Source of the DNA: a bacterium
GTDB taxonomy: Bacteria; Elusimicrobiota; Elusimicrobia; Elusimicrobiales; UBA9959
DNA: 64,000 nucleotides
Direction: 5' to 3'
Assembly (NCBI GenBank): GCA_021847485.1
Contig: JAJZRA010000002.1
Span: 20,078 to 84,077 of the forward strand
The notes beneath the pieces were generated by a model. The model saw only the letters and a program-made list of their open reading frames with translations. It had not been told where the DNA came from and ran no database searches. This document shows positions 5,101 through 20,148 of this stretch, in pieces. The stretch's first letter is position 1. The number at the start of each line of letters is the position of its first letter. Made by a program: the position numbers and the translations under genes.

Positions 5101-5436
5101 ATGGGAATCTGGGACAACGCTTTCAAGATCCCGGAGCCTCCTGAACCGACGGAAGAGGAGAAGAGGCTGCTGGACGACCTGGCCGCTAAGGTGCGCGCCC
5201 GCGGGCTGGGCGACATGGCGGCCCTGGTGGCCGAAAGCACCAGGCCGGTGCACGGCCTGGGCTCGCAGGGGCTGGTTTTCCTCGAGCCGCTGCTGGCGAT
5301 GGTGTTCAGGAAGGAAGACGTGCGGAAGTACCGCGCCCTGCTGGGCAACAGCAAGGCCGTGACGTACCTGGTAGACCGGCTCAACGCCGATCCAACTGAA
5401 AAGAAGGAAGACAACGATGTCAAAAAAAGACCTTGA
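5101..5436 (+). CDS. small hypothetical protein (111 aa), first gene of the GlmL-type unit
   Basis: Real-protein composition (K/E/D/L-rich). Overlaps the next gene by 20 nt. AATAAT sits 6 nt upstream of the ATG. Confidence 0.6.
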   Translation: MGIWDNAFKIPEPPEPTEEEKRLLDDLAAKVRARGLGDMAALVAESTRPVHGLGSQGLVFLEPLLAMVFRKEDVRKYRALLGNSKAVTYLVDRLNADPTEKKEDNDVKKRP

Positions 5437-7210
5437 AGTCATCATAGCGACCGACTGCGGCAGCACGACGACCAAAGCCATCCTCATCGAGAAGAAGGGC
5501 GACACCTACCGCCAGACCTTCCGCGGCGAAGCCCCGACCACCGTCGAGGCCCCCTTCGAGGACGTCACGAAAGGCGTGCTCAACGCGATCACCGAGGTCG
5601 AGGAACTCTCCGGCCGCAGGATCCTGGACGGCGAGAAGATCCTGACGCCGAACGAGGGCAAGACCGGAGTGGATATCTACGTTTCCACTTCCTCCGCCGG
5701 CGGCGGCCTGCAGATGATGGTCGCGGGCGCCGTGAAGGCGATGACCGGCGAGTCGGCCCAGCGCTGCGCGCTCGGCGCCGGCGCCATCGTGATGGACGTG
5801 CTGGCCTCCAACGACGGCCGCGCCGACCACGAGAAGATCGAGCGCATCCGCCAGCTGCGCCCGGACATGATGCTGCTCTCCGGGGGCACCGACGGCGGCA
5901 CCGTGACGCACGTCGTGGAGCTCGCGCAGTTCCTCAAGGCCGCCGACCCCAAGCCGCGCCTCGGCGCCTCGTACAAGCTGCCGGTCATCTACGCCGGCAA
6001 CAACAAGGCCCACGGCCAGATCAAGGAGATCCTCGGCGACAGGACCGCGCTGATCATCACCGAGAACCTGCGCCCCTCCCTGGAGCGCGAGAACCTGATG
6101 CCGGCGCGCCATAAGATCCACGACATCTTCCTCGAGCACGTCATGCAGCAGGCGCCGGGCTACCCCCGCCTGATGAAGATGGTCGGCGCGCCGATCATGC
6201 CCACGCCGGCGGCGGTGGGCACGATGACCGAGAAGTTCGCCAAGGCCAACAACTTCAACGTGCTGGCCGTGGACATCGGCGGCGCCACGACCGACGTGTT
6301 CAGCGTGTTCGAGGGGGTCTTCAACCGCACCGTCAGCGCCAACCTCGGCATGAGCTACTCGATCTCCAACGTGATGGCCGAGGCCGGCCTGCCGAACATC
6401 CTGCGCTGGCTGCCGTTCGACATAGACGAGCAGGACCTCCGCAACCGCCTGAAGAACAAGATGATCCGCCCGACCACGATCCCGCAGACCGTAGAGGACC
6501 TGCAGGTCGAACACGCCGTCTCCCGCGAGGCGCTGCGCCTGGCCTTCGACCAGCACAAGGCGCTGGCCGTGGGCCTCAAGGGCGTGCAGCAGGAGCGCTC
6601 CATCTCCGACGCGTTCGAACAGACCGCCTCGGGCCAGAGCCTCATCAACGTGATGCGGCTGGACTACGTGATCGGCTCCGGCGGCATCCTGGCGCACTCC
6701 CCCCGCCGCACGCAGTCGATGATGATGATGATCGACGCCTACCAGCCGGAGGGTATCACCCGCATGGCCGTGGACTCCATCTTCATGATGCCGCACCTCG
6801 GCGTGCTCGCGCAGATCAGCGAGAAGGCCGCGCTCGACGTGTTCTACAACGACTGCCTCGTGCGCCTCGGCACCTGCCTCGCGCCGAAGGGCCTCGCGAA
6901 GGAAGGCCAGAAGATCATGGAGTGGGAAGTGACCGGCTCCGACGGCAGCCGCCAGGCCGGCGAGCTGCGCTTCGGCGAGATGGTGCACGTGCCGTTCGGC
7001 GCCCCTAAGGCGAAGCTCGTCGCGAAGCCGGTGAAGGGCTTCGACATGGGCGCCGGCTCCGGCAACCGTGTGGAGGCCGACATCGAGGGCGGCGTCGTGG
7101 GCCTGGTGCTCGACGGCCGCGGCAGGCCCTTCACGCTCGCCAAGGACCCGTCCAAGCGCCGCGACGACCTGAACAAGTGGTACAAGGCCATGGGGATGTA
7201 CCCCGTCTGA
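5417..7210 (+). CDS. GlmL/MutL-family ASKHA-fold ATPase
   Basis: IATDCGSTTTKAILI and VDIGGATTDVFSV phosphate-binding motifs, as in glutamate mutase accessory protein GlmL. AAGGAAG RBS. Confidence 0.8.
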   Translation: MSKKDLEVIIATDCGSTTTKAILIEKKGDTYRQTFRGEAPTTVEAPFEDVTKGVLNAITEVEELSGRRILDGEKILTPNEGKTGVDIYVSTSSAGGGLQMMVAGAVKAMTGESAQRCALGAGAIVMDVLASNDGRADHEKIERIRQLRPDMMLLSGGTDGGTVTHVVELAQFLKAADPKPRLGASYKLPVIYAGNNKAHGQIKEILGDRTALIITENLRPSLERENLMPARHKIHDIFLEHVMQQAPGYPRLMKMVGAPIMPTPAAVGTMTEKFAKANNFNVLAVDIGGATTDVFSVFEGVFNRTVSANLGMSYSISNVMAEAGLPNILRWLPFDIDEQDLRNRLKNKMIRPTTIPQTVEDLQVEHAVSREALRLAFDQHKALAVGLKGVQQERSISDAFEQTASGQSLINVMRLDYVIGSGGILAHSPRRTQSMMMMIDAYQPEGITRMAVDSIFMMPHLGVLAQISEKAALDVFYNDCLVRLGTCLAPKGLAKEGQKIMEWEVTGSDGSRQAGELRFGEMVHVPFGAPKAKLVAKPVKGFDMGAGSGNRVEADIEGGVVGLVLDGRGRPFTLAKDPSKRRDDLNKWYKAMGMYPV

Positions 7211-7234
7211 CGCCCAGGAGGAAAAGGATAGAAT

Positions 7235-8359
7235 ATGGCTCACGCATACACACCCGGACTCAAGGTAATGCCCTGCACCGTGCTCAGGAAGAAGCGCCTG
7301 CTGCCGATCCCCGGCAAGGTGCTGGCCGCGATGGGGCAGCAGGTAGGCGCCATGGACGTGGTCGCGCAGACCGAGCTGCCCGGCAAGGTCTTCTCGGTCA
7401 ACGTGGCCAACCGCCTGGCGGTCGGCCCCGAGGAGATCAAGAACTTCATGGTCAAGAACGAGGGCGACGCGGTCAAGAAAGGCGAGATCATCGCCGAGAA
7501 CAAGCCTTTCCTCAAATGGTTCAAGACCTCGATCGAGTCCCCGGTCGAAGGCACCGTGGAATCCGTCTCCCCGGTCACCGGCCAGGTGCTGCTGCGCGAA
7601 CCCCCGAAGGTGCTGCCTATCAAGTCCTACGTTAAGGGCAGCATCGTCGAGGTGGTCCCGGAGTTCGGCGTCACGGTAGAGGCCGAGGGCACCTTCATCC
7701 AGGGCATCTTCGGCGTGGGCGGCGAGACCAACGGCGAGATCGCCGTGGCGGTCTCCAGCCCCGACGAGGAACTGACGGCCGAGGCCCTCAGCGAGGGGCA
7801 CCGCGGCAAGATCGTCGTCGGCGGCAAGCACGCCGGCCTCGCCACGATCAAGCGCGCCGTCGAGCTGGGCGTCAACGCCATCGTGGTCGGCGGCATCCAC
7901 GACCGCGACCTGCGCCAGCTGCTCGGCTACGACATCGGCGTCGCCGTGACCGGCACCGAGAAGATAGGCCTTACGCTGATCGTGACCGAGGGCTTCGGCA
8001 TGATCCCGATGGCCGAGTACACCTTCAAGCTGCTCTCCTCCCGCAACGGCGAGCACGCCTCGGTCTCCGGCGCCACGCAGATCCGCGCCGGCGTGATGCG
8101 CCCCGAGATCATAGTCCCGGGCTACCCGAAGAACGTCAGCGAGTGCAAGAAGGACCAGGGCCGCGGCTGGATCGAGCCCGGCGACCCTATCCGCATCATC
8201 CGCGAACCGCACTTCGGCGTGATCGGCACCGTGAAGAGCCTGCCGCCGGAGCTGACGGTCATCGGCAGCGAGAGCCACGCCCGCGTCCTCGAGGTCTCCC
8301 TCGAAGGCGGCGAGGTCATAGTGGTCCCCCGCGCCAACATCGAAGTGCTGGAGAAGTAA
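7235..8359 (+). CDS. hypothetical protein with hybrid-barrel-like N-terminus and KOW-like C-terminus
   Basis: VKKGEIIAENKP...SPVEGTVESVSPVTGQV segment, then Gly-rich repeats (KIVVGGKHAG, AIVVGGIHDRD, LIVTEGFG). Lies 24 nt after the ATPase gene. Confidence 0.7.
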   Translation: MAHAYTPGLKVMPCTVLRKKRLLPIPGKVLAAMGQQVGAMDVVAQTELPGKVFSVNVANRLAVGPEEIKNFMVKNEGDAVKKGEIIAENKPFLKWFKTSIESPVEGTVESVSPVTGQVLLREPPKVLPIKSYVKGSIVEVVPEFGVTVEAEGTFIQGIFGVGGETNGEIAVAVSSPDEELTAEALSEGHRGKIVVGGKHAGLATIKRAVELGVNAIVVGGIHDRDLRQLLGYDIGVAVTGTEKIGLTLIVTEGFGMIPMAEYTFKLLSSRNGEHASVSGATQIRAGVMRPEIIVPGYPKNVSECKKDQGRGWIEPGDPIRIIREPHFGVIGTVKSLPPELTVIGSESHARVLEVSLEGGEVIVVPRANIEVLEK

Positions 8360-8416
8360 GCCGCGCCGGAAGCGGCCGGAGCGGCGTCCGCCGCCCGGCC
8401 GCGGCCCGCGTCCCGA

Positions 8417-10588
8417 ATGGCAAAGAAGAACCGCAACCACGCCTCCCCCCGCCCCGCCCTCTCCGTCCCGCCGGAGCGCCCCCGCTACCCGGCCTGGCTG
8501 GCCTGGGGCGCCTTCGCCCTCTGGGGCGGCTGGATCTTCAAGAATTTCCTGACCCGTTTCCCGCCCGACCTCGCCTACCTCGCCGCCGCGCTGGCGCCGG
8601 GACAATACCTGACCTCGGGCCTGCTGAAGGCGCTGCCCGGCCACCTGGCCGCGCTGGCGGCCGGGGCTTTCTTCCTGCTCTCCTGCGCCGGGCTGGGCCG
8701 CCTGCTGCTGGTCTCCGTCCTGAAGGCCGGCCCGCTGGACCGGCTGGAGGAGGCCGTCCTGTCGGCCGCGCTGGGCTTGGGCGTCTTCGCGCAGGCCGTG
8801 CTCGCGCTGGCCGCCGCCGGCCTGCTCGGCCGCTGGCCGGTGCTGGCGCTGCTGGCGGTCTCGGCCGGGCTGGGCGCGTTGTCGCTGCGGCTGCGCCCGC
8901 CGGCCCCGGCCGCGCCCCCGTCGCTGAAGCCGGACTTCCCCGACGTCGTCGCCGGGGCCGTGCTGGCCGCCGCGGTCCTGATAAACCTGGTCGGCGCCCT
9001 GTCGCCCGAGATCTTCTACGATTCGCTGGTCTACCACCTCGCGGTGCCGAACTTCTACGTCATCAAGCGCGGCCTGGCGGACATGCCGTACAACCTCTAT
9101 TCCAACCTCTTCCTGCTGCACGGCATGCTCTACGCCGCGGGGCTGGAACTGCTGAACGAGATGGTGCCCAAGCTGCTGAACTACTCGGCCGGGCTGATCG
9201 CGGCGGCCGCGGTCTTCTCGATAGGCCGCAGGCACCTGTCGGCGCGCGCCGGCCTGTGGGCGGCGCTGGTCAGTTACACCGTCACGCTGGCCATGCTGAC
9301 CTCCTGGTCCTCCGGCACCGAGACGCTGTTGGCCATGTTCTCGGTCTGCTCGCTGGCGGCCGCGCTGCGCCATGAGCCTGGCGGCCGGAAGTTCCTGCTG
9401 CTGTCCGCTTTCCTCGCGGGCTGCGGCATGGCCGTCAAGACCACCGGCCTGTTCCCGGCGATAGGTTCCGGCCTCGTGCTGCTCTACCGGGGCCGCTCCG
9501 ACAGGCGCGACCTGCTGCGGGCCGTCCCGCTGTTCGCGCTGGCCGCGGCCCTGCCGGTGCTGCCGTGGCTGGCCAAGAACTGGGTCTACCGCCATAACCC
9601 CTTCTTCCCGTTCCTCACCTCCGTCTTCGGCCCCGGCGGCGCGCTGCCGCAGAGGCTGGCCGGCTTCATGGCCGAGACGCGCCAGATGGGCGCGGTGCAG
9701 TTCAAGGCCTGGCTGCTGAACCCGTGGGACGTCACGATGGGCGTCCTGCCTAATTCCCAGTACTTCACGCCGCTGTTCCTGGCGCTGCTGCCGCCGCTGT
9801 TCCTGCTGGAGCCGGGCGCGGCCGCCGCGCCTTTCTGGGCCTATTTCCTCTGCTGCTGGCTGCTGTGGTCCGTCACCTCCACGATGGCCCGCTTCCTGAT
9901 GCCGGCCTTCCCGGCCGCGGGCCTGCTGATAGCCGCGGCGCTGGGCGGCCGCGCCCACGCCGCGCTGAAGCGGACGCTCGCCTACGCCGTGCTGTTCTTC
10001 TGCGCGCTGGGGGTCTACTGGGCCGGCCTGATCCTCTATTCCCAGGGCCGCTGGCGCCCGGTCTTCGGGCTGATCTCCAAGGACGACTACCTGTCCGACA
10101 GCCGGCCCACTTACCCTTACAGCCATTACGCGGCGATAAAATTCATTAACGAGCGGTTGCCTCCCGGCGCCAAGACGCTGATCATAGGCGACGGCCGCAG
10201 CTTCTACATGAAGAAGGATTTCATCGTCAGCTCCGTTTTCGACCGCACCCCGATAGTGGAGTACGCGGCCGCCTCGGCGGACGGCGACGCGCTGTACGCC
10301 CGCCTGCGGGCCGAGGGCGTCACGCACCTGCTGATCAACGCCGGCGAGGCGGTCAAGCTCGGCCGGAGCTACGGGATGTTCTACTGGGACGCCGGGGCCC
10401 GCGGCGTCTTCGACGCCTTCTGGGCCCGCCACGTCCGGGAGGTCTATTCCCGCGACGAGCTGCAGGGAGGCCGCTTCTTCAACCGGGTGGCCGTCTACGA
10501 GCTGACGGACGCCCCGGCGCCCGGCGCCAGGCCCCCGTTCAACCTCATGCGCGACGCCGTCATGCGGGGGATAGAGGCCGCCGGTTAG
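8417..10588 (+). CDS. large polytopic membrane protein, GT-C (ArnT/PMT-like) glycosyltransferase candidate with soluble C-terminal domain
   Basis: More than 10 hydrophobic helices over about 500 aa, then a soluble tail of about 200 aa. The family assignment is tentative and by eye. Confidence 0.6.
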   Translation: MAKKNRNHASPRPALSVPPERPRYPAWLAWGAFALWGGWIFKNFLTRFPPDLAYLAAALAPGQYLTSGLLKALPGHLAALAAGAFFLLSCAGLGRLLLVSVLKAGPLDRLEEAVLSAALGLGVFAQAVLALAAAGLLGRWPVLALLAVSAGLGALSLRLRPPAPAAPPSLKPDFPDVVAGAVLAAAVLINLVGALSPEIFYDSLVYHLAVPNFYVIKRGLADMPYNLYSNLFLLHGMLYAAGLELLNEMVPKLLNYSAGLIAAAAVFSIGRRHLSARAGLWAALVSYTVTLAMLTSWSSGTETLLAMFSVCSLAAALRHEPGGRKFLLLSAFLAGCGMAVKTTGLFPAIGSGLVLLYRGRSDRRDLLRAVPLFALAAALPVLPWLAKNWVYRHNPFFPFLTSVFGPGGALPQRLAGFMAETRQMGAVQFKAWLLNPWDVTMGVLPNSQYFTPLFLALLPPLFLLEPGAAAAPFWAYFLCCWLLWSVTSTMARFLMPAFPAAGLLIAAALGGRAHAALKRTLAYAVLFFCALGVYWAGLILYSQGRWRPVFGLISKDDYLSDSRPTYPYSHYAAIKFINERLPPGAKTLIIGDGRSFYMKKDFIVSSVFDRTPIVEYAAASADGDALYARLRAEGVTHLLINAGEAVKLGRSYGMFYWDAGARGVFDAFWARHVREVYSRDELQGGRFFNRVAVYELTDAPAPGARPPFNLMRDAVMRGIEAAG

Positions 10589-10677
10589 CCCCCCGGCCGC
10601 CGTCGGCCGCGGGGCCGCGCGGGGAGCCGGGTTTTTGCTTGCCTGAAAAAGAGGTTAAAAGGTATATTATCAACAGT

Positions 10678-11934
10678 ATGATAAAAAAATCGTCCCTTTG
10701 CCTGATACTCTGCCTGGCGTCGGCGGGAGCCCTGCACGCCGCCGGCAAGAGCGCCAAGGCCGCCCAGGCGGCGGTCCCGGCGATAAACGGCTTCTCGGCG
10801 TCGGACATGCCTTACGACGCCGGCGGCGCCGCGCTGCTGCGCTGGCCCGTCAACGCGGCCGACACCGAGACCACGGTCTACACGGTCTATGCCTCCTCCT
10901 CCGACGGGGCCGGCTGGGTCAGGATAGACGAGTTCCCCTCCTCGGCCAACACCGGCAAGGGCATCGACCTGCCGTTCTGGGCCTGGGACGGTTCCGCCGC
11001 CGAGCACGCCTATAAGGCCGAGCTGGGCAACTTCTTCCCCGGCGCCGCCGAAGGGACCGTGCTGCGCTTCAAGGTGGCCTCCTCCGACAAGGGCCGCGTC
11101 ACCGCGGAATCCCTGCCCGCAGAGGCCGCCGTCTCCGGCAACTGGTTCCGCCTGGACCGCCTGAACAACCTGCTGCTGCTGGTCCTCGTGATGGTCGTCT
11201 TCTTCTGGGCGGTCTCCCACGCCAAGCGCAAGGGCCTCTTCATCCGCCGCATCGCCGGCCTCGACGCCATAGACGAGGCCATCGGCCGCGCCACCGAGAT
11301 GGGCAAGCCCATCTACTACGTGCCCGGCATCGGCAGCATGAGCTCGATCTCCACGATAGCCTCCGCCTTCATCCTGGGCGAGGTGTCCAAGAAGGTCGCG
11401 CAGTACGACAGCTTCATCAAGATCCCCCACTACGACCCGATCGTGATGACCGTGGCCAAGGAAGTGGTCAAGCAGTCCTACATGGAGGCCGGCCGCCCGG
11501 ACTCCTACCGCGAGGACCTGAACTTCTTCGTCAGCCAGGACCAGTTCTCCTACGCCGCCTCGGTGGACGGCATGATCGCCCGCGAGAAGCCGGCCGCCTG
11601 CTTCTTCATGGGCTACTTCATGGCCGAGTCGCTGCTGCTGGCCGAGGTCGGCGCGACGTCCGGCGCCATCCAGATAGCCGGCACCGACGTCGAGCACCAG
11701 CTGCCGTTCTTCTTCACCGCCTGCGACTACACGCTGATCGGCGAGGAGCTCTACGCCGCCGGCGCCTACCTGTCGAAGGAGCCGATGCTGATGAGCGCGC
11801 TGAAGGTACAGGACTTCGGCAAGCTGGTCGTCATGGTCTCGGTGCTCTTAGGCATCGTGCTGCTCGCGCTGGGCACGAAGCTGCACTGGGACAGCTTCAC
11901 GCAGGTGATCCTGAACCTCTTCAAGGCCTATTGA
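10678..11934 (+). CDS. membrane protein of unknown function (signal peptide, Fn3-like ectodomain, TM, conserved-looking domain, C-terminal TM)
   Basis: ATG 10678 gives MIKKSSLCLILCLASAGALHA. The track start 10639 is a TTG. TATATT lies 9 nt upstream. First gene of a 4-gene operon. Confidence 0.7.
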   Translation: MIKKSSLCLILCLASAGALHAAGKSAKAAQAAVPAINGFSASDMPYDAGGAALLRWPVNAADTETTVYTVYASSSDGAGWVRIDEFPSSANTGKGIDLPFWAWDGSAAEHAYKAELGNFFPGAAEGTVLRFKVASSDKGRVTAESLPAEAAVSGNWFRLDRLNNLLLLVLVMVVFFWAVSHAKRKGLFIRRIAGLDAIDEAIGRATEMGKPIYYVPGIGSMSSISTIASAFILGEVSKKVAQYDSFIKIPHYDPIVMTVAKEVVKQSYMEAGRPDSYREDLNFFVSQDQFSYAASVDGMIAREKPAACFFMGYFMAESLLLAEVGATSGAIQIAGTDVEHQLPFFFTACDYTLIGEELYAAGAYLSKEPMLMSALKVQDFGKLVVMVSVLLGIVLLALGTKLHWDSFTQVILNLFKAY

Positions 11935-11935
11935 T

Positions 11936-12604
11936 ATGAAATTCATAAAGAAACACATTCCCCTCCTGATAGTGCTGGTGGTCGGCGTGCTGACGCTGGC
12001 CTCCTACTACGTGCCGAACAAGTACTCGGTCGACTACCTCGAGCTGATGAACAAGTGGGAGAACATAGTTTCCGCCTTCGCGTTCCTGCTCGGCCTCATC
12101 AGCCTGTTCTACTCGCACTATAACAAGATCAAGCGCAAGACCGACGGCTGGGGCTACAGCCTGTTCGTCTACGTCGGCTTCCTCGCGATGGTGGTGCCGG
12201 CGCTGATGAACGGCGGCAGGCAGATGGTGGACGGCCAGGTCACCTCGCTGGGCTGGTCCTTCCGCTACATCTACAACGCGCTGAGCGCCACGATGTTCGC
12301 GGTCCTCGCGTTCTACATCGTGTCGACCGCCTACCGGTCGTTCAGGATCAAGTCCGCGCAGGCCTTCGTGCTGTTCGTGGCGGCCTTCATCCTGATCCTG
12401 GGCAAGGTGCCGCTCGGCCAGATCATCTGGGACTCGGTGCTGGGCTGGACGCATACCGGCATAGACCAGGTCATAGAGTGGATCATGAGCGTGCCCGCCG
12501 TGGCCGGCAAGCGCGGCATCATGATCGGCATCGCGATAGGCGCGGTGGTCACCTCGCTGAAGATCATCTTCGGCATCGAACGCCAGTACATGGGCAGGGA
12601 CTAA
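11936..12604 (+). CDS. polytopic membrane protein of unknown function
   Basis: About 6 hydrophobic helices. 1-nt gap after the previous gene. Confidence 0.75.
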   Translation: MKFIKKHIPLLIVLVVGVLTLASYYVPNKYSVDYLELMNKWENIVSAFAFLLGLISLFYSHYNKIKRKTDGWGYSLFVYVGFLAMVVPALMNGGRQMVDGQVTSLGWSFRYIYNALSATMFAVLAFYIVSTAYRSFRIKSAQAFVLFVAAFILILGKVPLGQIIWDSVLGWTHTGIDQVIEWIMSVPAVAGKRGIMIGIAIGAVVTSLKIIFGIERQYMGRD

Positions 12605-12608
12605 TACG

Positions 12609-13430
12609 ATGAAGGAAAAACTCGAAAAATTCTTCAAGATAGACCGGCGCTGGATCTTCCTGCTGCTGGCGGTGGTGCTGTTCGTGCCGATCCTCAAGCC
12701 GCTCGGCCTGCCGAACAAGACCATCTCCCGCGACACCCAGAACGCCTTCAACTACCTGGACAAGCTGCCCGCGGGCTCGTTCGTGCTGTTCTCGCTGGAC
12801 TACGATCCGTCCACGCGGCCGGAGCTGCAGCCGCAGGCGATAGCCGCCATCCGCCACGCCTTCAAGAAGAACCTGCGCGTGGCCGTGGTGACCTACATCG
12901 CCGGCTCCACCGGCCTGATCCAGCAGATCTTCGAGAAGTTGCCGGCCGAGTACGGCAAGGTCAACGGCACCGACTACGCGATCTTCCCCTACATGGCCAA
13001 CGCCACCGCGGTCATGACGCAGATGGCCTCCGACTTCTACGGCATCTACGACAAGGACCAGGACGGCCGCGACGCGAAGTCGCTGCCGGTCATGAAGGGC
13101 GTCAAGACCTACAAGGACATGGCGATGGTCGTCAACATCACCGGCACCTCGATGCTCGACTTCTGGGTGGCCTACGTCGGCGACAAGTACAAGGTCCCCG
13201 TGGTCGGCGGCGTCACCGCCATCAGCCAGCCCGGCTACGGCCCGTACCTGCAGACCGGCCAGCTCAAGGGCCTCATCGGCGGCATGAAGGGCGCGGCCGA
13301 GTACGAGTCCCTGGTGAAGGAGCCCGGCAAGGGCACCTCCGGCATCGACGCGCTCAACCTGGCCCACCTGCTGGTGCTGGGCCTGATATTGACGTCCAAT
13401 ATCATACTTCTCGTTATCAGGTATCTTTAA
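12609..13430 (+). CDS. bitopic membrane protein of unknown function (N- and C-terminal TM around a soluble domain of about 220 aa)
   Basis: WIFLLLAVVLFVPIL at the N-terminus and LLVLGLILTSNIILLVI at the C-terminus. 4-nt gap after the previous gene. Confidence 0.75.
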   Translation: MKEKLEKFFKIDRRWIFLLLAVVLFVPILKPLGLPNKTISRDTQNAFNYLDKLPAGSFVLFSLDYDPSTRPELQPQAIAAIRHAFKKNLRVAVVTYIAGSTGLIQQIFEKLPAEYGKVNGTDYAIFPYMANATAVMTQMASDFYGIYDKDQDGRDAKSLPVMKGVKTYKDMAMVVNITGTSMLDFWVAYVGDKYKVPVVGGVTAISQPGYGPYLQTGQLKGLIGGMKGAAEYESLVKEPGKGTSGIDALNLAHLLVLGLILTSNIILLVIRYL

Positions 13431-13439
13431 GAGGTGATT

Positions 13440-14168
13440 ATGACAGAACCTTGGATGATTGCGGGCGCGTGGCTGGCCGCGGGCCTTACGATATTCCTCT
13501 TCAGCTTCCTCTACAGGGACAACCCGTTCTTCAAGATCGCGGAGCACCTGTACCTCGGCGCCGGCATGGGCTGGTGGTTCCAGGTGTACATGTTCAACAT
13601 CTGGAAGCCCAAGGTCTGGGAGCCGCTGATGGCGCACCAGTGGGGCGTGATCATACCGGCTGTGCTGGGCCTGTCGCTCGTGACCCAGTTCATCCCGAAG
13701 ATCTCGTGGCTCTCCCGCTACGGCTTCACGTTCCTGATGGGCTACGGCGCGGGCCTCGCGGTCCCCGCCGGCCTCTCCACGGACTTCATGAACCAGATCG
13801 CCGGCACGATCCGGCCGTTCTCGGCCCTGGCCTCGATGACCCCGTTCGCGATCTTCAACTCGCTGCTGATCGCGCTGGGCGTGGTCTGCGTGCTGTTCTA
13901 CTTCTTCTTCTCGGTCGAGCACAAGGGCTCGGTCAAGAAGGTGTCGAACGTCGGCATCTACTTCCTGATGGTCTACTTCGGCGCGGCCTTCGGCAACACC
14001 GTGATGGCCCGCTTCTCGCTGCTGTACGGCCGCTTCGACGACCTGGCGAGCTTCAGCTCCCGCGGCAGCTTCTACGCCACGCAGATCATCCTGGCGGTGA
14101 TGGTGCTCTACTTCCTGGTCACCGGCTTCACGAAGAAGCCGCAGCAGGGCGAGGAAGAGGCGCACTAA
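13440..14168 (+). CDS. polytopic membrane protein of unknown function
   Basis: ATG 13440 is preceded by AAGAGGTG. The track start 13434 is a GTG inside the RBS spacing. About 6-7 helices. Confidence 0.75.
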   Translation: MTEPWMIAGAWLAAGLTIFLFSFLYRDNPFFKIAEHLYLGAGMGWWFQVYMFNIWKPKVWEPLMAHQWGVIIPAVLGLSLVTQFIPKISWLSRYGFTFLMGYGAGLAVPAGLSTDFMNQIAGTIRPFSALASMTPFAIFNSLLIALGVVCVLFYFFFSVEHKGSVKKVSNVGIYFLMVYFGAAFGNTVMARFSLLYGRFDDLASFSSRGSFYATQIILAVMVLYFLVTGFTKKPQQGEEEAH

Positions 14169-14191: not shown

Positions 14192-14229
14192 AAAGAAAGG
14201 CGGGCCGGATATCCGGCCCGCCTTTCTTT
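14192..14229. terminator. bidirectional rho-independent terminator
   Basis: AAAGAAAGGCGGGCCGG-atat-CCGGCCCGCCTTTCTTT: perfect 17-bp stem with A/T runs on both sides, between convergent genes. Confidence 0.8.
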
Positions 14230-16220: not shown

Positions 16221-17489
16221 TCATTTGCCCGTCAGCCAGGCGAGGAAGGCGCCCCACGAGGAGTCCGCCGCCCAGGAGAGCTCGGCGTAGGCCGCCGGCG
16301 GCCGGGTGCCGGGGAGGTAGACGGCCAGGCCCGAGGCCAGGCCGTAGTCCGCGGGTTCGAGCCCGTCGGGGACCTGGGCGTAGTTGGCGGCGGCCCGGAA
16401 AGGGACGAGCGGGCCCCGCAGGTGGGCGGCCAGCGCGGCCGCGGCGCCGCGCAGGCGCTGGTCGCGGGCTTTGGCGGCCACGTAGTCCAGGAAGGAGCCC
16501 AGGTCCTTGTTGTCGTCGTAGGCGTAATGCTGGGCGTAATAGAGGCCGCGCTTCATGACGCCGCGGTCGCCGGCGGCCATCGCCGCCTCCGCGAAGGCGG
16601 CCGTCAGCTCCCGCAGGCGGGGCAGGGCGGAGGCGTCCAGCGCGCTGAGCGTGGCGCCCGTGCCCTGCGCCGCGTAGTAGGCGCCGTAATCCGAGACCAG
16701 CTCCCCCGCCAGGGCGCGCGGCGCCATGCCCGGGGCGGCCGTGAGGGCGGCCAGGACGGCGTCGTACGGGTAGCCGTCGGCCGGCTCGGTCTCCTCGGAA
16801 CCGACGATATAGGAGGCGAGGTCCCTGAGCTCCCAGGCCACCTCCGGCATCTGCATCAGGCAGGCGTCCGAGGCGTAAACGTCGGCTCCGCCCGCCGCGC
16901 GCAGGGCCTGCGCCAGCTGCCGCACCGTTATGTGGGAGCCGCTCTCGTCGTCGTAGGAGATGCCGCGCGGGCCGGCGGCGGACTTGGTCCAGCCGGAGCC
17001 GTGGTTCCAGACCACGAGCAGGTACTTCCGGGCCGGGTAGGAGGCCTTGGCCCAGCGGATGAAAGCCGCCAGTTCCCGGTAGTCGCCCATGTCGGCGGGG
17101 CCCAGGTCGGCCAGGACCGGCGAGGTCACGGCGCCGCGGTCCAGGTCCCGCGTCACGTAATAGCGGCGCACGCCGGTCCAGTCCCCGTCGCCGGCGTAAT
17201 AGCCCTTCATCCTGCCCAGCTCGGCGACGATGCTGACCCGGTCCGTGGACCCGGCGGCCTCCAGCTCGTTGAGGTCCTTCAGGCCGAACTCCTCCAGGTT
17301 GTTCTTGGCGTTCAGGTAGACCATCACGGTCCAGTCGGCGGGCGCGGGGCGCCGCGGCCGCTCCGGCGCGGGCGGCGCCGGGACGCGCGCCGCGTCCGCC
17401 GCGGTGAGGCCCGGCAGCCCCAGGGCGCCGGCCGTCCCGGCCAGGGACAGCCAGAGCGCGGCGGCGGATAAGGCCCGGGCTTTGGTCAT
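16221..17489 (-). CDS. clostripain-family (C11) cysteine peptidase, secreted
   Basis: Signal peptide. WTVMVYLNAKNNLE, catalytic His context VVWNHGSGW and Cys context YASDACLM. Confidence 0.85.
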   Translation of the reverse strand: MTKARALSAAALWLSLAGTAGALGLPGLTAADAARVPAPPAPERPRRPAPADWTVMVYLNAKNNLEEFGLKDLNELEAAGSTDRVSIVAELGRMKGYYAGDGDWTGVRRYYVTRDLDRGAVTSPVLADLGPADMGDYRELAAFIRWAKASYPARKYLLVVWNHGSGWTKSAAGPRGISYDDESGSHITVRQLAQALRAAGGADVYASDACLMQMPEVAWELRDLASYIVGSEETEPADGYPYDAVLAALTAAPGMAPRALAGELVSDYGAYYAAQGTGATLSALDASALPRLRELTAAFAEAAMAAGDRGVMKRGLYYAQHYAYDDNKDLGSFLDYVAAKARDQRLRGAAAALAAHLRGPLVPFRAAANYAQVPDGLEPADYGLASGLAVYLPGTRPPAAYAELSWAADSSWGAFLAWLTGK

Positions 17490-18954: not shown

Positions 18955-20148
18955 TCACAGCCTGGTGAAGTCCACGCCGCGGCGCCTGTACTGCTCGATG
19001 CTCATCTTGCGCAGCTCCTCCCAGCCGTAGACCTGGGTCTTGCCCTTCTTGGGGTCCCAGACGGCGGCGCGGTCGGTGCAGGACATGCACGGGTCTATCG
19101 CCGCGATCACGAGCGGCACGTCGGCCAGCCAGCCGCCCTCGAGCATGTACGCCACGCTCTGCAGGTTGGCCAGGGTGGGGGCGCGCACCTTCAGGCGCTC
19201 GGGCTTGTCGGTGCCGTTGGACTTCAGGTAGTGGATGTCCTCGCCGCGCGGGGCCTCGTAGTGGTTGACGGCCTCGCCGGGGGCGATGCGCATGGGCACC
19301 TTCACGGCTATCGGGCCCTCGGGCAGGTTGTTGAGGATCTGCTCGATCATCTTGTACGACTCCACGAGCTCCAGCGCGCGCACGACCAGGCGGCCGAAGA
19401 CGTCGCAGGAGTCGTGCGTGATCACCTTAAAGTCGAGCTCGTTGTAGATCAGGTAGGGCTCGTCCTTGCGGACGTCGCGGGCCAGGCCCGAGGCGCGGGC
19501 CGTGGGGCCCACCGCGCCGCGCTCTATGGCCACGTCGAGCGGGAGCTTGCCCACGTTCTGCGTGCGGGCGAGCACGGTCGGCTCCTCGGTGGCGAGCTTG
19601 ATGTAGTAGTTGGTCCTCTCCTTGAGGTACTGGATGCGCTTCAAGACCTCGGCCTTCTGCTCGGCCGTGATGTCGCGGCGCACGCCGCCGAGGGTGTTGA
19701 TGGAATAGTGCACGCGGTTGCCGGAGAGGAGCTCGAGGCAGTCGAGCACCTGCTCGCGGTCGCGCCAGGTGTACATGAACAGCGTCTCGAAGCCCATCTC
19801 GTAGCCGGCGACGCCCAGCCACAGCAGGTGGCTGTGCACGCGCTCGAGCTCGCCGAACAGCGCGCGGATAGCGAGCGCCCGCTTGGGGGTCTCGGCCTTG
19901 GCGAGCTCCTCGACGTTGGTGATGTAGCAGGTCGTGTGCGAGTGGGAGCAGATGCCGCAGACGCGCTCGATCAGGTAGAGGTCCTGGATATAGGTGCGTT
20001 CCTCGGCGGCCTTCTCCATGCCGCGGTGATTATAGCCCAGGTTGACGGTCGCGCCGGAGATCTGCTCGCCTTCCAGGACGAGCATGAAGTTCTCCGGCTC
20101 CTTGAGGGCGGGATGCTGGGGGCCCAGCGGGATGGTGATCTTGGACAT
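18955..20148 (-). CDS. group 4 [NiFe]-hydrogenase large subunit (NuoD homologue with both Ni-binding Cys pairs)
   Basis: RVCGICSHSH (Cys64/Cys67) and DPCMSCTDR near the C-terminus, followed by a 37-aa tail. Confidence 0.9.
   Translation of the reverse strand: MSKITIPLGPQHPALKEPENFMLVLEGEQISGATVNLGYNHRGMEKAAEERTYIQDLYLIERVCGICSHSHTTCYITNVEELAKAETPKRALAIRALFGELERVHSHLLWLGVAGYEMGFETLFMYTWRDREQVLDCLELLSGNRVHYSINTLGGVRRDITAEQKAEVLKRIQYLKERTNYYIKLATEEPTVLARTQNVGKLPLDVAIERGAVGPTARASGLARDVRKDEPYLIYNELDFKVITHDSCDVFGRLVVRALELVESYKMIEQILNNLPEGPIAVKVPMRIAPGEAVNHYEAPRGEDIHYLKSNGTDKPERLKVRAPTLANLQSVAYMLEGGWLADVPLVIAAIDPCMSCTDRAAVWDPKKGKTQVYGWEELRKMSIEQYRRRGVDFTRL

Follow-up and report, generated by a model that had tools for sequence, protein, structure and literature searches.

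Layout of the locus

The DNA analysed here is a stretch of 64,000 nucleotides (nt), the window, from a bacterium of the Elusimicrobiota (Elusimicrobiales; UBA9959), covering positions 20,078 to 84,077 of contig JAJZRA010000002.1 in a metagenome-derived assembly of 2.2 Mb and 122 contigs (GCA_021847485.1). It carries four tightly packed genes, P1 to P4, that encode membrane proteins. Upstream of these, at 5101-8359, lie three conserved genes for soluble proteins: a small protein, a GlmL-like ATPase of the ASKHA superfamily and a barrel-sandwich/KOW protein that we call the partner. Judged from sequence comparisons, the four cassette genes are the membrane half of a seven-protein system, and the upstream trio is its soluble half (Table 1). 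A first-pass annotation, made from the letters and open reading frames of the window, had described an operon of membrane proteins only, overlooking the trio.

Table 1. Features of the locus, by position in the window
Feature	Position	Strand	Remarks
Small soluble helical protein	5101-5436	+	111 aa; first gene of the trio, conserved neighbour of the ATPase
GlmL/MutL-type ASKHA (actin/Hsp70-fold) ATPase	5417-7210	+	597 aa; PF13941, E = 2e-127
Partner protein	7235-8359	+	374 aa; barrel-sandwich-hybrid N-domain, central glycine-rich alpha/beta-looking region, KOW-like C-terminus
GT-C (PMT_2-like) membrane glycosyltransferase	8417-10588	+	PF13231, E = 4.5e-8, above cut-off
Predicted promoter-like site, TTGCCT-N18-TATATT	10639-10668	+	consensus match only
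P1	10678-11934	+	418 aa
P2	11936-12604	+	222 aa
P3	12609-13430	+	273 aa
P4	13440 (ATG) or 13434 (GTG)-14168	+	242 or 244 aa
Predicted bidirectional intrinsic terminator	14192-14229		perfect palindrome; fold -42.7 kcal/mol, z = -7.2 against shuffles

The gaps between P1 and P2, P2 and P3, and P3 and P4 measure 1, 4 and 9 nt, the last falling to 3 nt if P4 starts at its GTG, and in this respect the open reading frame (ORF) coordinates agree with the first-pass layout. Both signals that it had placed around the cassette are also present. The promoter-like site is one of three overlapping sigma-70-like matches in the AT-rich spacer of 89 nt that lies 5' of P1, with a density of 4 matches per 7.5 kb as compared with 0.8 +/- 1.0 in shuffled sequence. 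The palindrome sits between P4 and a convergent PpiC/SurA-like gene, and a simple terminator scan overlooked it because its T-run belongs to the stem.

The membrane proteins

Residues 154-401 of P1 match the Pfam family DUF6754 (PF20539) with 371.7 bits (E = 1.9e-111; profile positions 3-251 of 257), against a gathering score of 27 bits, and a whole-genome scan gave the same match. The model spans a transmembrane (TM) helix, a Rossmann-like domain and a second TM helix at the C-terminus, behind variable N-termini, all of which P1 shares; the entry itself is a bare catalogue record, without described function, structure or partners. Across its 2160 clusters at 50% identity, DUF6754 is always C-terminal, and the hypervariable regions in front of it (0 to ~1000 aa) include Fn3 modules and coiled coils.

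In the AlphaFold2 model of P1 (pLDDT 72.8), a predicted signal peptide is followed by an Fn3-like beta-sandwich at residues 40-151, TM helices at 159-184 and 369-401, and between these a five-stranded Rossmann-like alpha/beta domain at 212-365. That of P3 (pLDDT 93) has TM helices at 13-29 and 241-272 around a six-stranded Rossmann-like domain at 58-236, in which the loop after strand 1, DYDPS..PEL, is invariant. For both proteins, the models and, for P1, hydropathy agree with the architecture that had been read from the sequence. Foldseek searches, which the first-pass annotation had proposed for all four proteins and which were run for P1 and P3, were only partly informative. Fn3-domain matches dominate for the whole P1 model, confirming the ectodomain and masking the DUF6754 domain, while P3 retrieved only generic Rossmannoids (a GT-B half-domain, eIF2B, RCK, USP, LOG) with TM-scores of at most 0.45. 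PDB sequence searches gave no significant match for either protein.

The topologies of P1 to P4 were derived solely from hydropathy and charge rules. A basic stretch, HAKRKGLFIRR, follows the first TM helix of P1, and by the positive-inside rule we infer that its DUF6754 domain is on the cytoplasmic side. The invariant KIDRR motif of P3, in turn, precedes the first TM helix, which would place the P3 domain outside the cytoplasm. The two soluble domains therefore probably lie on opposite sides of the membrane. Residues 317-356 of P1 are its most conserved part and yet the least confidently modelled in the monomer, as would be expected of an interface.

The suggestion that P1 and P3 share a similar alpha/beta module holds at the level of fold class, both being Rossmann-like, but does not extend to a paralogous pair: profiles of 57 and 62 sequences align with an hhalign probability of 0.2%, and the best BLASTP match (E = 0.27) covers 20 residues in a TM region. 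Additional P3 genes exist elsewhere. An Elusimicrobiaceae metagenome-assembled genome (MAG) has a stand-alone paralogue 1.8 kb downstream of its cassette (L018:9831-10688; 32% identical to P3 of the window), and in locus L076 a lone additional P3 follows the second cassette.

P2 shows six hydropathy peaks, in keeping with the approximately six TM helices first assigned to it. Its conservation, in a family with more than 5000 homologues found, centres on the predicted cytoplasmic face (KIxRxxxGWxYS, SAAYRAFRAR, LGIERSYLGG). For P4, hydropathy gives four strong peaks and weaker ones, and the family alignment supports six TM helices, with conserved motifs FSFLYKDNPFYKFAEH, YFFFSxEHKG and TVMARxSLLIGR. 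The P4 proteins of Elusimicrobia and a few relatives have in addition a C-terminal TM helix and a charged tail (residues ~205-244), whereas most homologues end ~35 residues earlier, without this helix; the original estimate of six to seven thus fits a family with six and a lineage-specific seventh. P2 and P4 are not detectably related (hhalign probability 0.9%; half-by-half comparisons were negative too). In Planctomycetaceae (Lacunimicrobium, Thalassoglobus, Caulifigura), P2 is 607-613 aa long (L111:7473-9314, L122:4579-6402, L123:8511-10337) through an insertion of ~400 aa in the variable, predicted periplasmic loop between TM3 and TM4.

The soluble proteins

The upstream ATPase matches PF13941 over its full length, and its phosphate-1 (ATDCGSTTTKAILI), phosphate-2 (VDIGGATTDVFSV) and GSGG adenosine motifs reach 95% conservation or more across 29 homologues. 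By these marks it is a member of the PF13941 branch of the ASKHA ATPase superfamily, and it is predicted to hydrolyse ATP. At 59-69% identity to homologues across phyla, it is the slowest-evolving part of the system. Conservation declines from the ATPase (67%) through the partner (55%), the P1 domain (46%), P4 (42%) and P2 (39%) to P3 (35%), with the periplasmic parts evolving fastest.

GlmL/MutL is an accessory protein of the coenzyme-B12 glutamate (methylaspartate) mutase. The ATPase shares with it the ASKHA fold family and the nucleotide-binding motifs, but has a C-terminal extension of ~120 aa and scores far below the cut-offs of both the GlmL equivalog NF040745 (235.2 bits; cut-off 475) and the subfamily TIGR01319 (163.3 bits; cut-off 204). 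Its associates differ as well: rather than with a mutase, it is paired with the barrel-sandwich/KOW protein and a DUF6754 cassette, and its gene neighbours are the small protein and this partner, not GlmE or GlmS. GlmE (PF06368) is absent from 31 of the 31 genomes of the window's family (that of the window and 30 others), which argues that the ATPase is not a helper of a B12 mutase here.

The partner combines several faint resemblances with strong conservation. Residues 58-115 give sub-threshold matches to RnfC_N (19.8 bits; threshold 25.6) and NqrA_N (17.4; threshold 25), and residues 288-355 give weak KOW matches to Spt5, NusG and L24. Sixteen diverse homologues share 98 invariant columns, and the central region holds the conserved motifs QGIFGIGGE, VVGGIHDKDLR..LLGYDLGVAITGTE, TEGFG and SGATQIRAGVIRPE. 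The small protein has a conserved core, FLES..P..FLGSQ, with no Pfam match and no TM peak; in 24 metagenomic loci, as well as in Ca. Loosdrechtia and Kuenenia, a homologue of it lies directly 5' of the ATPase gene. PDB searches found no relative with a solved structure for any of the three proteins: nothing significant was returned for the ATPase sequence, and the partner profile gave only weak KOW matches.

The minus strand opposite the ATPase, partner and GT-C genes contains an open frame of 1670 aa (5420-10432). It is of low complexity, rich in Arg, Gly, Ala, Asp and Gln, as is typical of spurious ORFs in high-GC DNA.

Conservation of gene order

Gene order was compared in 19 related genome loci by tblastn, and in 80 metagenomic loci, most of them without taxonomic placement, which were obtained by scanning contigs with a diverse DUF6754 alignment and annotated with iterative profiles. 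The order P1-P2-P3-P4 is kept in 17 of 17 Elusimicrobia loci with enough DNA, and P2, P3 and P4 come next for 52 of the 53 metagenomic P1 genes that have 2.8 kb or more of downstream sequence. Across these sequences, P1 to P4 form an almost invariant cassette. In seven loci (L067, L071, L076, L077, L084, L092, L094) the whole cassette is repeated in tandem, in two or three copies. With so fixed an order, the four proteins very probably belong to one hetero-oligomeric complex, as had been proposed at the outset.

The soluble genes are part of the same pattern. Small protein, ATPase and partner lie directly 5' of P1 for 18 of the 40 P1 genes with enough upstream DNA, and the same seven genes are found in the complete genome of Ca. 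Loosdrechtia (Planctomycetota). In phyla other than that of the window, the distance from the partner stop to the P1 start is mostly -7 to +5 nt, a spacing by which the partner gene can be read as translationally coupled to P1 in many phyla. Five Elusimicrobia loci lack the GT-C gene (L004, L005, L008, L012, L018), and there the ATPase and partner genes come directly before P1.

Two planctomycetes show the unit broken up. Caulifigura coniformis (L107) has ATPase, partner and P1 at 3.91 Mb and P2-P3-P4 at 5.87 Mb, 2 Mb away, while Thalassoglobus polymorphus (L108) has partner-P1, the ATPase and P2 at three separate sites. The four genes thus travel together across phyla, but their synteny is not absolute. 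In both split systems the partner gene remains beside P1, and this suggests that docking takes place at the cytoplasmic DUF6754 domain.

Beyond the seven genes, no other universal neighbour of the cassette was found in these loci; the recurrent ones (Memo-like, PlsY, PlsX, MazG and others) are clade-specific, and the surroundings are housekeeping and variable. In 13 loci of one clade (L053:11679-12926 and 12 others, within L028-L062), the gene right after P4 on the same strand encodes a Memo-like protein (PF01875) that is extended by ~120 aa at its N-terminus. In the anammox bacteria Brocadia (L109) and Kuenenia (L110), P1 and P2 are separated by ~1.1-1.2 kb, a gap not seen in Ca. Loosdrechtia. 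Peptidase genes occur near some cassettes. Four tandem genes for clostripain-type (C11) peptidases stand directly upstream of the P1 homologue in an Elusimicrobiota MAG (L019:331-5463), and the window (16221-17489) and L010 have one C11 gene each, 2 kb downstream of the cassette. L115 has a C25 and L103 an M23 peptidase, L116 has none, and enrichment over chance is not demonstrated.

Distribution and co-occurrence

Linkage on the chromosome is not the only association between the two halves. Among 151 evenly sampled Elusimicrobiota genomes, eight have DUF6754, and precisely these eight have PF13941; all belong to the family of the window (Fisher p = 2e-13), and in three of them the halves are on different contigs. 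Within the family, DUF6754 is present in 28 of 31 genomes, and in 23 of the 24 of high quality. Of 201 Planctomycetota genomes, 51 have both, two have DUF6754 only, six have the ATPase only and 142 have neither (p = 3e-38). The halves can be far apart even in complete genomes, by 280 kb (G307), 500 kb (G318) and, in Kuenenia (G407), 526 kb. As far as these genome sequences go, cassette and ATPase are found in the same genomes, whether or not they are linked.

The named Planctomycetota that carry the system are Brocadia, Jettenia, Kuenenia and Loosdrechtia, together with Gimesia aquarii, Thalassoglobus polymorphus, Caulifigura coniformis and Lacunimicrobium album. Further carriers belong to the Elusimicrobiota, Gemmatimonadota, WOR-3, Zixibacteria, Nitrospiria, Latescibacteria and Edwardsbacteria. 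The bacterial phyla concerned are mostly uncultured. Cultured carriers are the last four planctomycetes, with Kuenenia available as an enrichment culture. DUF6754 is absent from 14 well-known control genomes.

Two carriers deserve separate mention. In one planctomycete (G378:C20:254535-262435), the DUF6754 gene is broken by two TGA codons and the GlmL-like gene by a TAA and a TGA, while C18 carries a further GlmL copy in two pieces. These interruptions look like joint decay of both halves, but could be an artefact of assembly or recoding. In the region L117:8032-12057 of Kuenenia stuttgartiensis (G407:C1, 1.054-1.058 Mb), one gene is, by its position, very probably that of the GlmL-like ATPase, misnamed after its Pfam family. 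The tags KSMBR1_1056-1058, mapped by position, show similar moderate expression (94/74, 42/53, 35/49) without response to nutrient limitation.

Relation to known systems

The first-pass annotation had seen no recognisable catalytic or transporter motifs. Pfam, NCBIfam and PADLOC indeed detect no Walker, ABC, MFS, RND or Sec family in the four membrane proteins, and P2, P3 and P4 match no model of these collections; P1, on the other hand, is not without a family, being a DUF6754 protein. Searching Pfam sequence by sequence at E = 1 brought up no consistent family, ABC permeases included, in 34 P2 and 33 P4 homologues. By these profile searches, none of P1 to P4 falls into a known transporter or assembly system. 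For the seven proteins together, Pfam and NCBIfam give no ABC_tran or Walker A-B ATPase and no ABC permease family, and PADLOC gives no match to anti-phage defence at E up to 0.1. No relevant paper came up in a literature search on DUF6754, PF20539, PF13941, GlmL with ASKHA, and the locus tags of Kuenenia.

Catalogued families thus cover just P1 (a domain of unknown function) and the ATPase, which is mislabelled as GlmL/MutL, while P2, P3, P4, the small protein and the partner have none, and not one of the seven can be matched to a transporter, secretion or redox system described so far.

A putative ATPase-coupled membrane machine

The reading we favour, tentatively and with slightly less than even confidence, is that P1 to P4 would be the membrane module of a seven-protein ATPase-coupled system, with translocation as its most likely output. 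Its parts differ in strength. That the proteins make up one ATPase-coupled membrane machine is probable, given the gene order and genome-by-genome co-occurrence; that this machine is a translocator is somewhat less likely than not. The boldest version is unlikely, although not far-fetched: a new class of primary machine, in which an ASKHA ATPase would power inner-membrane translocation or mechanical work, with the DUF6754 domain of P1 as the coupling element and interchangeable cassettes setting specificity.

In such a machine, P2 and P4, with six TM helices each, and the two TM helices of each of P1 and P3 would assemble into one inner-membrane complex of ~16 TM helices. Its cytoplasmic face would consist of the conserved DUF6754 domain and the conserved basic loops of P2 and P4, and here the partner/ATPase pair may dock. 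The actin-fold ATPase, by binding and hydrolysing ATP, would then drive a conformational change through the membrane core as far as the P3 Rossmann-like domain in the periplasm and the variable P1 ectodomain, and the output would be movement of a substrate across the inner membrane by a primary transporter with an ASKHA instead of a P-loop ATPase. In the lineage of the window, the GT-C gene has been inserted between the halves, and the membrane half has its own promoter-like site.

Translocation is favoured because of the two non-identical 6-TM subunits, the multiple cassettes with differing outward parts, and the housekeeping or catabolic contexts. By analogy, several cassettes with different ectodomains resemble importers that share an energising module.

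A number of observations weigh against this interpretation. No transporter family was detected in the system. Tests for internal repeats in P2 and P4 and for homology between the two were negative, and no conserved network of buried charges was seen. Solute transporters do not usually have ectodomains of long coiled coils or Fn3 modules. We know of no ASKHA ATPase that serves as the power source of a transporter, and the relatives of GlmL are thought to act as chaperone-like reactivases. Some genomes have two or three copies of the ATPase, so that "many cassettes, one ATPase" is not general. Finally, there are the Planctomycetota with a single half (2 + 6), most of which are fragmented MAGs.

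Alternative explanations

Two other explanations are serious rivals. The first, to which we give a minor but real chance, is mechanotransmission: the ATPase cycle would be relayed via the membrane module to the P1 ectodomain, which would act on the envelope by activating a hydrolase or by tethering or spacing the outer membrane (compare FtsEX through EnvC), and no substrate would cross. This would fit the outward-facing parts, among which the P1 ectodomains are hypervariable (P1 totals 280-1276 aa) with Fn3 modules and long coiled coils, Planctomycetaceae P2 proteins have their large loop insertions and the periplasmic regions evolve fastest; one P1 homologue even carries the source label "septal ring factor EnvC". 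The general logic is also that of Type VII ABC mechanotransmitters and shared-ATPase importers (FtsEX, MacB/LolCDE; ECF, MsiK-type), in which an ATPase in the cytoplasm serves a membrane module that has large domains in the periplasm, and one genome may hold several such modules. The likeness ends there. The present system has no P-loop/ABC ATPase, no FtsX or MacB domain and no sequence or fold relationship to those proteins, and is built from two polytopic and two doubly anchored bitopic proteins. Some P1 members are nearly without an ectodomain (P0384, 282 aa; L072, 275 aa), indicating that the core function needs none, and the neighbourhood holds no conserved hydrolase or outer-membrane partner.

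The second rival, which we rate as improbable and slightly below mechanotransmission, makes the ATPase pair a chaperone that assembles or repairs the membrane complex, a "reactivase" in the manner of GlmL, EutA or DdrA. The complex itself would then work independently of ATP, for example as a passive carrier, as one driven by the proton motive force, or as a membrane enzyme. Characterised relatives (GlmL/MutL, EutA, the diol dehydratase reactivase) are generally thought to be ATP-dependent reactivating chaperones, and such a role would suit a system in which about half of the cassettes are not beside the ATPase and the copy numbers of the two are uncoupled. However, an ATPase as highly conserved as this, with a partner translationally coupled to P1, looks more like a stoichiometric subunit than a transient factor, and no cofactor-binding motif was recognised in P1 to P4.

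The remaining two explanations are poorly supported. The first-pass annotation had envisaged a self-contained four-protein complex for envelope assembly or export, with P1 and P3 as paralogues and a tie to the GT-C gene. The gene is indeed a GT-C-type candidate, its PMT_2 match being above cut-off, and it lies co-oriented 89 nt upstream of P1 and is kept there in several Elusimicrobia genera; the Rossmann-like domains of P1 and P3 had also seemed to fit. But where the GT-C gene is kept, it is only 31-51% identical, as compared with 75-90% for the flanking genes, and it is absent from the five Elusimicrobia loci listed above, from all 80 metagenomic loci outside the Elusimicrobia clade and from every non-Elusimicrobia locus. 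We conclude that it is a lineage-specific insertion and not a partner of the system; it could reflect a link confined to this lineage, such as glycosylation of the P1 ectodomain, or simply an insertion that is tolerated. With no profile homology between P1 and P3, and with the ATPase trio as the conserved partners of the cassette, the proposal is very improbable.

Least probable of all is a distant relative of Rnf or Na+-NQR, in which the partner would correspond to RnfC/NqrA, P2 and P4 to RnfA/E or NqrD/E, and P3 to RnfG/NqrC: the barrel-sandwich N-domain of the partner resembles RnfC_N and NqrA_N below threshold, and there are likewise two 6-TM proteins of ~200-240 aa and an anchored soluble-domain subunit of similar size and topology, but the P2 and P4 homologues match no Rnf-Nqr family even at E = 1, P2 and P4 are not homologous to each other as RnfA and RnfE are, the system has no Fe-S, flavin or NADH domain (no Complex1_51K, SLBB or Fer4), and the ASKHA ATPase, which takes the place of the NADH/ferredoxin module, has no role in such a pump.

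Implications

Carriers of the seven genes are not rare. The DUF6754 domain is near-universal in the Elusimicrobia family of the window and is found in about a quarter of the sampled Planctomycetota, including anammox bacteria that serve in wastewater treatment. Each carrier genome thus holds ~8 kb of conserved "hypothetical" genes, among them that of an ATPase which is mislabelled as a helper of a B12 enzyme, or even as the DNA-repair protein MutL. As cultured carriers exist, the question of what these proteins do is directly testable. To our knowledge, every ATP-dependent membrane transporter and envelope machine described so far is driven by a P-loop (ABC, AAA+, secretion), P-type or rotary ATPase. 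If the interpretation favoured here is true, an actin-fold ATPase working with a dedicated four-protein membrane module would represent a new principle of energy coupling.

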